Source: a virus
Taxonomy: Duplodnaviria > Heunggongvirae > Uroviricota > Caudoviricetes
Direction: 5' to 3' (one strand)
IMG/VR virus record: IMGVR_UViG_2558860274_000010
Span: 1-15,352 of that record
DNA length: 15,352 bases
Each line of letters begins with the position of its first letter. Position 1 is the stretch's first letter. Below the pieces are notes generated by a model that was not told the DNA's origin, ran no database searches, and saw only the letters and a list, made by a program, of their open reading frames with translations. This document shows positions 12,908-13,132 of the stretch, piece after piece. The position numbers and the translations under genes are program-made.

Positions 12908-13132
12908 TTAAGTAAACCTGTCTGAACAGGTGCTCTGGTCGTGTTTGTCTTTGTTGGGTACAAATTGAGAATATTTTTCATTAATTAATCTTCTTCTGCA
13001 GGCTTCAATAACCCACGCTGAAAAATTACCTGAACCTTTCAGGTCAAGAGCGATGTTAATTTGTTCAATTATCTGGTTTGGAAATCGGATGTTGCGGGTT
13101 GTTGTTCTGCGGGTTCTGTTCTTTGATGACAT
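12908..13132 (-). CDS. putative ribbon-helix-helix DNA-binding protein (74 aa)
   Basis: N-terminal basic tail, then a beta-strand-like segment (RNIRFP), helix (NQIIEQINIAL), G-x-S-x-N turn (KGSGNFS) and second helix (AWVIEACRRRL): the Arc/CopG/MetJ pattern. Inferred from the pattern only. Confidence 0.4.
   Translation of the reverse strand: MSSKNRTRRTTTRNIRFPNQIIEQINIALDLKGSGNFSAWVIEACRRRLINEKYSQFVPNKDKHDQSTCSDRFT

Follow-up and report, generated by a model that had tools for sequence, protein, structure and literature searches.

What does a short gene read against the late operon do beside the cohesive-end site of a lambdoid prophage? The question is raised by IMGVR_UViG_2558860274_000010, a Caudoviricetes record in IMG/VR whose positions 1 to 15,352 form the stretch of DNA analysed here (15,352 nucleotides, referred to as the window). 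Its minus strand carries, at 12908..13132 including the stop codon, an ATG-to-stop coding sequence for a 74-aa protein. A preliminary description had placed this open reading frame (ORF) convergent with pch and near cos, and the placement was confirmed by the coordinates, by the PerC match of the neighbour and by the cohesive-end sequence GGGCGGCGACCT, which lies 207 bp from the ATG. We find that the 74-codon ORF is a genuine gene and no new kind of element. It belongs to YlcI/YnfO (DUF3950), a family that is already known, annotated and widely distributed but uncharacterised. Its product is probably a small ribbon-helix-helix (RHH) DNA-binding protein. With slightly better than even confidence, we favour the view that the YlcI/YnfO proteins of lambdoid phages are putative RHH sequence-specific repressors or autoregulators, whose genes run opposite to the late operon where the lysis/moron region meets the packaging genes.

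The family assignment rests on two matches above curated thresholds, namely Pfam DUF3950 (PF13132; 63.8 bits against a cut-off of 25, E=1.3e-17) and NCBIfam YlcI_YnfO_N (NF041551; 34.5 bits against a cut-off of 30). The ORF also matches phrog_949, a family of unknown function, with E=6e-31, and RefSeq labels the same ORF, in a locus 99.8% identical, as a 'YlcI/YnfO family protein' (WP_001300236.1). Both signature segments of the family, I15-R16-F17 and N36-F37-S38-A39-W40, are present in the window protein, for which we collected 638 homologues. Those with 37-55% identity come from Salmonella, Klebsiella, Serratia, Xenorhabdus, Photorhabdus, Pectobacterium, Proteus and other Enterobacterales; the residues R16, I25, F37, W40 and V41, invariant in 33 family sequences, are kept in these distant relatives as well. 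The family is narrow, with matches in 101 of 1.84 billion 50%-identity cluster representatives (E<=0.001), many of which are error-laden lambda reads. Of 5426 complete E. coli genomes, 4556 had a partial megablast match to the 1.1-kb pch-ORF-cos region and 647 a near-full one. The lambda region also appears on contigs of about 3.5 kb or 48.5 kb in assemblies of Streptomyces, Pseudomonas, Cohnella, Flavobacterium and others (L013-L045, L070, L081). These contigs in unrelated bacteria are almost certainly contamination with lambda control DNA, which accounts for many frameshifted 'homologues' in protein databases.

That the ORF is a real gene is argued for by its substitution pattern. We compared codons 1-49 in pairs drawn from the window, lambda, DLP12, BP-4795, an E. 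albertii prophage and another E. coli prophage. The ratio of non-synonymous to synonymous substitution rates (dN/dS) was 0.02-0.14 in pairs with dS of 0.6-1.9, and pairwise comparisons gave 13.5-23 synonymous versus 3.5-10.5 non-synonymous differences over the 49 codons. Judged by these figures, codons 1-49 are under strong purifying selection. The pattern already contradicts the notion of a non-functional ORF, conserved only because it overlaps cis-acting DNA near cos or carried along as a hitch-hiking remnant at a mosaic joint. That notion draws on the block from cos to about codon 49, which is roughly 90% identical in DNA among lambda-type phages, on the lack of annotation in both lambda reference records and on the failure to find a promoter-like site. 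It is further at odds with the 37-55%-identity homologues, which keep the invariant residues across many Enterobacterales genera. The adjacent 51-aa ORF (13148-13303, minus strand; 37 aa in lambda), which spans the conserved spacer towards cos, provides a contrast: considered as a partner gene and rejected, it matches no family and differs from lambda by 2 synonymous versus 6 non-synonymous changes, which places the conservation of the spacer there at the DNA level. We regard a non-functional ORF as very improbable.

The next step is the fold. The preliminary description had given the protein a basic tail, an alternating strand segment and two helices around a 'G-x-S-x-N' turn. The arm, the alternating TRNIRF segment and both helices were recovered; the turn was not, since the sequence reads K-G-S-G-N-F-S, a Gly-rich turn followed by the NFS(A)W motif of the family. 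The basic N-terminal arm MSSKNRTRRTT and the putative ribbon strand TRNIRF occupy codons 1-17 (13082..13132, minus strand), with I15, R16 and F17 invariant or nearly so in family alignments. In an AlphaFold2 monomer built from a 33-sequence alignment, residues 1-18 are coil or extended, and a helix at 19-32, a turn and a helix at 37-55 follow, with a predicted local distance difference test (pLDDT) score of 72-90 in the core; the N-terminal segment remains extended or coil and forms no strand. Predicted helix A (codons 19-32, 13037..13078, minus strand) has pLDDT values of 72-87. Helix B, predicted from the model and the alignments, begins at the NFSAWV motif (codons 37-55, 12968..13024, minus strand) and contains the invariant F37, W40 and V41 and the nearly invariant A44 and C45. 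The C-terminal tail (codons 56-74, 12911..12967, minus strand) is variable and predicted to be disordered, with pLDDT below 50 at residues 60-74. A separate model of a distant member, a satellite fusion protein, has the same N-terminal layout, including helix A.

Comparison of profiles pointed to the same architecture. Using hhalign, a profile of 63 DUF3950 domains aligned with a profile of 62 Arc-family sequences with a probability of 56%, P=1.1e-4 and a score of 23.3, placing N14-I15-R16-F17-P18 on Arc N11-L12-R13-W14-P15, which is the RHH register. Among 31 controls, the reversed Arc profile gave P=0.94 and the best of 30 column-shuffled profiles scored 15.8. About 20 of the 29 weak Foldseek matches in the PDB are RHH proteins (Arc, NikR, YiiF, TacA, ParD2, MazE and VapB), none of them significant, and several named BFVD matches are RHH proteins too. 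At the sequence level, HMMER searches of the PDB, whether started from the single protein or from a profile, gave chance matches only, none of the Pfam RHH models matched any of 33 family members at E<=10, and a single-sequence comparison for CopG gave nothing. The RHH pattern proposed in the preliminary description is reasonable in view of the helix placement and the Arc profile match. We consider RHH the best-supported predicted fold for DUF3950, with moderate support.

From these comparisons we infer dimer formation, DNA binding and a regulatory role for the window protein. In the mechanism we propose, two chains would form an intertwined RHH dimer, whose core would be built by the helices 19-32 and 37-55 with F37, W40, V41, A44 and C45. 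Residues 12-17 (TRNIRF) of the two chains would pair as strands and insert into the major groove, where T12, N14 and R16 would point towards the bases in the manner of Arc Q9, N11 and R13, and the basic arm (MSSKNRTRRTTTR) would grip the flanking DNA. Made from the prophage, the protein would act as a sequence-specific repressor or autoregulator.

Distant relatives provide an indirect view of this DNA-binding role. Most of the 39 distant homologue loci examined in other Enterobacterales lie in satellites, with an integrase in 23, a D5_N-type primase in 19, AlpA in 15 and AntA in five; their DUF3950 gene lies in reverse orientation between alpA and the main operon. Operator-like palindromes, shared by different genera, are found at the promoters of these genes. 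In subfamily c, two TGGTA-N2-TACCA palindromes, one at about -45 and one abutting the ATG, occur in nine of ten loci. Sites of this type lie at 5544-5589 in L004 and upstream of the match in L053, L056, L060, L061, L085, L086 and L088. All 21 loci of subfamily b (among L008 and L050-L087) have two GGTGYAYAWACACC sites about 22 bp apart and a third over a TATAGT box. The central bases of the palindromes differ between groups that differ in the residues preceding IRF (STTKG, SGYKG, SAKKN, SATKK and others), a co-variation that is not corrected for shared ancestry, and upstream palindromes exceed shuffled sequences (z>=2) in 17 of 50 loci. L004 has a putative divergent promoter (5445-5589) and a 60-aa DUF3950 protein, and TGGTACGTACCA is a candidate operator sequence. 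We take the satellite palindromes as our strongest indirect evidence that DUF3950 may bind DNA through its N-terminal strand and autoregulate. The satellite DUF3950 gene and the DNA upstream of it are also overlapped on the antisense strand by stop-free ORFs of 300-430 codons with low-complexity-looking translations (4598-5887 on the minus strand of L071, with equivalents in L063, L066, L072, L074, L082 and L087), which may be real genes or composition artefacts. Synteny 'cluster 0', made up of long antisense ORFs over the DUF3950 gene, was discarded as an artefact of greedy ORF picking.

Whether the gene belongs to the phage or was brought in as a moron, as the preliminary description had suggested, was addressed by a survey of its neighbours in 80 IMG/VR loci, 79 of which could be assessed upstream, one ending at the contig end. 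In all 80 loci the gene and the late operon are on opposite strands, and the packaging module directly adjoins the gene in 76 of the 79. The upstream neighbour is a Nu1/gpA module in 65 loci, with cos 208-219 bp from the ATG; in 11 loci it is an HNH-TerS(Terminase_2)-TerL module, with the HNH start 42 bp away, and in three it is neither. The deposited annotation of BP-4795 and of a Shiga toxin (Stx) phage, of the Stx2a type, has the HNH arrangement. Downstream we found convergent pch in 54 loci, a same-strand, p78-like DUF1398 gene 66 bp away in 17, p79 in two and another gene or none in seven. Qin (ynfO-ydfO, L174 2257-2958) and L147-L164 have a DUF3950 gene with DUF1398 57-66 bp behind it on the same strand. 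The pch-YlcI cassette occurs with both packaging types at 97-100% identity, and DNA homology between the window and lambda breaks at about codon 50, a mosaic joint; codons 1-49 are therefore a conserved element with a recombination joint on either side. Where residues 1-74 are matched at 90-100%, pch almost always lies 88 bp downstream and, as judged from such comparisons, the C-terminal tail belongs to the downstream mosaic module, here pch, and can be swapped with it.

Homologues with conserved synteny are thus found in lambda, DLP12 and Qin as well as in the IMG/VR loci. The first 49 codons occur at the same position in lambda, DLP12, Qin, Stx phages and hundreds of IMG/VR loci, and the gene is therefore a conserved lambdoid gene and not a moron. 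Instead of sporadic presence with its own promoter and terminator, we observed a fixed position and no detectable promoter; only the tail and pch behave as a swappable module, and the moron at this locus is pch. In lambda the homologue has 64 aa (complement(48109..48303)), is 89% identical over residues 1-53 and 75% over the full length, and is identical to K-12 YlcI of DLP12. It is unannotated in both lambda reference records, J02459 and NC_001416 (the same ORF is L001 200-394), and labelled as a hypothetical protein in newer lambda records. The statement that such a gene is not part of the canonical lambda map therefore holds for the annotation and fails for the DNA, where the 89%-identical ORF sits at the same position. 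The 'orf-64' of the lambda literature, with a reported Nu1 interaction, is lambdap73, a different ORF between Q and S, and was not used. In DLP12, ylcI adjoins nohD, and in Qin the order is nohA followed by ynfO-ydfO. The pair ybcW-ylcI is among the convergent overlapping transcript pairs detected by RNA-seq in K-12 (PMC12288877).

Such constant proximity to packaging genes raises the alternative of a packaging-linked factor, which would bind DNA near the packaging site and modulate terminase action or expression rather than serve as a general transcription regulator, for example in initiation or termination at cos or in protection of cos in the prophage. Besides the adjoining module in 76 of 79 loci and the invariable 208-219 bp between ATG and cos in lambda-type loci, this is supported by the conserved non-coding DNA that separates the ORF start from the cos nick (13133..13339). 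This spacer differs from lambda by 10.6% mismatches, compared with 45% at the synonymous sites of the ORF; being less diverged, it is constrained in itself. In addition, in seven satellite homologues DUF3950 is fused to the first ~53 residues of a Terminase_2 TerS, its N-terminal DNA-binding domain. With the TerS of BP-4795-type phages, which are HNH-type and carry YlcI, the fused part shares 62-68% identity; it lacks the oligomerisation part and was modelled as a separate four-helix domain with pLDDT above 90. These fusions (L004 6001-6363 in E. coli CP027459.1, L005-L008; P0187, P0207, P0217-P0222) lie in an integrase-AlpA-primase layout and could serve as a packaging decoy or as a packaging-site targeting factor. 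A dedicated packaging role is, however, hard to reconcile with the presence of 97-100%-identical YlcI beside two unrelated modules, Nu1/A with cos on the one hand and HNH/TerS/TerL, with 42 bp between the start codons, on the other, which means that YlcI does not co-vary with the type of TerS. The gene is also read from the strand opposite the late packaging operon, the window retains an intact YlcI beside a truncated Nu1-like gene, and in most satellites the homologue adjoins alpA and int and not terS. On this evidence we consider a packaging-linked factor unlikely.

It is tempting to speculate further from the satellite fusions. DUF3950 proteins could be RHH repressors in phage-satellite conflict. 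In integrase-AlpA-primase satellites they would repress the divergent replication/packaging operon, and those fused to a copy of the helper TerS DNA-binding domain would target or mask the packaging site. The lambdoid copies, the window ORF among them, would cross-talk with the satellite proteins, for example by forming mixed dimers through the invariant F37/W40/V41 core or by competing for DNA, and would thereby affect how satellites are induced or packaged. We assign a low probability to this scheme. With their clear operator-like sites and TerS-domain fusions, the satellite homologues do offer a direct experimental route to function.

Returning to YlcI as a putative repressor or autoregulator, we looked for an operator in the spacer. 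One candidate, 70-102 bp ahead of the ATG, is the inverted repeat ATCAATTAATACG-N7-CGTAATAATTGAT at 13202..13234, which occurs once in the window and is conserved among lambda-type loci. A second element, a Fur-box-like palindrome at 13289-13307 (minus strand GAAAATGATAATAATTATC), is located just left of cosQ/cosN. It agrees with 17 of 19 positions of the Fur consensus, with 0 such matches expected by chance, and its lambda counterpart at 48447-48465 matches 16 of 19; all positions but one are invariant in seven lambda-type loci.

Several observations weigh against the proposed repressor role. HNH-type phages with identical YlcI strand residues have neither spacer element, and for this reason both are probably cos/Nu1-side features rather than YlcI operators; the case for the 13202-13234 repeat as operator, in particular, is weakened by HNH-type phages that have the same protein and no repeat. 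No shared operator was found for the lambda-type subfamily, and the satellite-type palindrome TGGTA-N2-TACCA is absent from the window. The promoter scan detected no sigma-70-like promoter upstream of the ORF. In the literature we found no functional study of, or experiment on, YlcI, YnfO or any other family member; ylcI 'mutations' in two resequencing papers come without functional information and were not used.

The preliminary description had offered an orphan antitoxin as another possibility, which can be put in more specific terms: in a two-gene cassette with DUF1398 (YdfO, YbcV or lambda p78), YlcI/YnfO would serve as RHH antitoxin or autoregulator, and the window copy would be an orphan that lost its partner to the insertion of pch and was possibly kept to neutralise partners from co-resident prophages. 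The gene order in Qin, where ydfO (DUF1398) lies 57 bp beyond ynfO on the same strand, and the p78-like DUF1398 gene 66 bp downstream in 17 of 80 IMG/VR loci are consistent with such a cassette, as are DUF3950-DUF1398 read-through fusions (P0152; P0227 with PF07166 and PF13132), the variable C-terminal tail, which co-segregates with the downstream module, and a weak PHROG match of the 74-aa protein to HicB-like proteins. The cassette is not general, however. In lambda and DLP12 the opposite-strand gene p79/ybcW separates the two genes, DUF1398 lying further downstream, and any operon would thereby be broken. Fifty-four of 80 loci lack DUF1398 and keep YlcI intact under strong purifying selection, and the satellite homologues have no DUF1398 partner. 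We found no evidence for toxicity of DUF1398, whose sole structure, 2HH8 (YdfO), was deposited as a hypothetical protein, and no meaningful PADLOC match. DUF1398 is absent from the window, which has pch in its place, and the earlier remark that no partner toxin is visible proved accurate, as the window offers no credible same-strand neighbour. Across the 80 loci the neighbours were TerS or HNH (on the opposite strand), Pch, p79 and DUF1398, unlike the arrangement of a type II toxin-antitoxin pair: the proposed search for co-occurrence linked the gene to pch, found downstream in 54 loci, and to no adjoining toxin family. An antitoxin of this kind therefore appears improbable, and the orphan antitoxin as first proposed is not supported.

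The remaining features of the window describe the setting of the gene. The convergent neighbour pch (12512..12826, plus strand) encodes a PerC-family activator (Pfam PerC, E=3.8e-44), ends 81 bp from the 74-aa ORF and occupies the slot taken by p79/ybcW or DUF1398 in other lambdoid phages. Between the two genes, an A-run, a short hairpin and a T-run (12863..12889; inverted repeat I8 with 10-nt arms, 90% complementary) form a weak candidate for a bidirectional terminator. It was not called by the terminator scan, whose two terminator-like matches both fall inside the 74-aa ORF. A search of 12300-13600 against Rfam returned nothing, and PADLOC gave chance-level matches only. The lambda-type 12-nt cohesive-end sequence (cosN) was read directly at 13340..13351 on the plus strand and is identical to the lambda left end. 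Right of cos (13462-15352), the Nu1-like gene is reduced to a fragment of 111 aa, of which residues 30-93 match phrog_57. Next come an EspF-repeat gene (tccP/espFu-like; Pfam EspF, E=3e-72) and a 217-aa minus-strand ORF that we take to be espJ-like. The packaging and structural module right of cos is replaced or deleted in the window and, with Nu1 truncated, the packaging module is defective. Together, the Nu1-like fragment, the EspF-repeat gene and the espJ-like ORF identify the window as part of an enterohaemorrhagic E. coli lambdoid prophage with a truncated packaging module.

For the window itself the outcome is mundane, a conserved hypothetical gene beside the virulence regulator pch, and nothing in the analysis marked it as the remnant of a toxin-antitoxin pair. 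The same gene sits in lambda, the best-studied phage, yet both reference records omit it; if a DNA-binding regulator does oppose the late operon at the joint between lysis and packaging genes, the regulatory map of lambda would be short of one component.

Among known systems, YlcI of DLP12 and YnfO of Qin are the direct counterparts. Like them, the window protein is encoded between the lysis genes and a nohD/nohA-type terminase gene, in the same orientation, and has the NFSAWV motif and the invariant residues; it differs in its C-terminal tail from about residue 50 and in its convergent neighbour, which is pch and not ybcW or ydfO. The Rpp proteins of E. coli phage-inducible chromosomal islands are small satellite DNA-binding proteins that act on helper TerS/cos and redirect packaging (PMC6739421). 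In concept they are close to the satellite fusions of DUF3950 to the TerS DNA-binding domain. We nevertheless rejected Rpp as a relative of DUF3950, since it is a winged helix-turn-helix protein related to lambda TerS and has no sequence match to the window protein. RHH antitoxins (ParD, TacA, MazE-mt1, VapB and the C-terminal domain of HicB) likewise combine a small RHH-like core with a variable C-terminal tail and are among the weak structural and PHROG matches of the window protein, although no toxin is co-transcribed with it in the window or in most relatives. The Arc and Mnt repressors of P22 (PF03869, RHH superfamily) showed no HMMER-level similarity to the window protein, which also differs from them in its longer basic N-terminal arm and disordered tail and in the location of its gene outside any immunity region. 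Both are phage proteins of small size. The alignment with Arc is free of gaps over the N-x-R-[F/W]-P strand motif and over the hydrophobic pattern of helix A (P=1.1e-4), and Arc structures are among the top Foldseek matches of the window protein.
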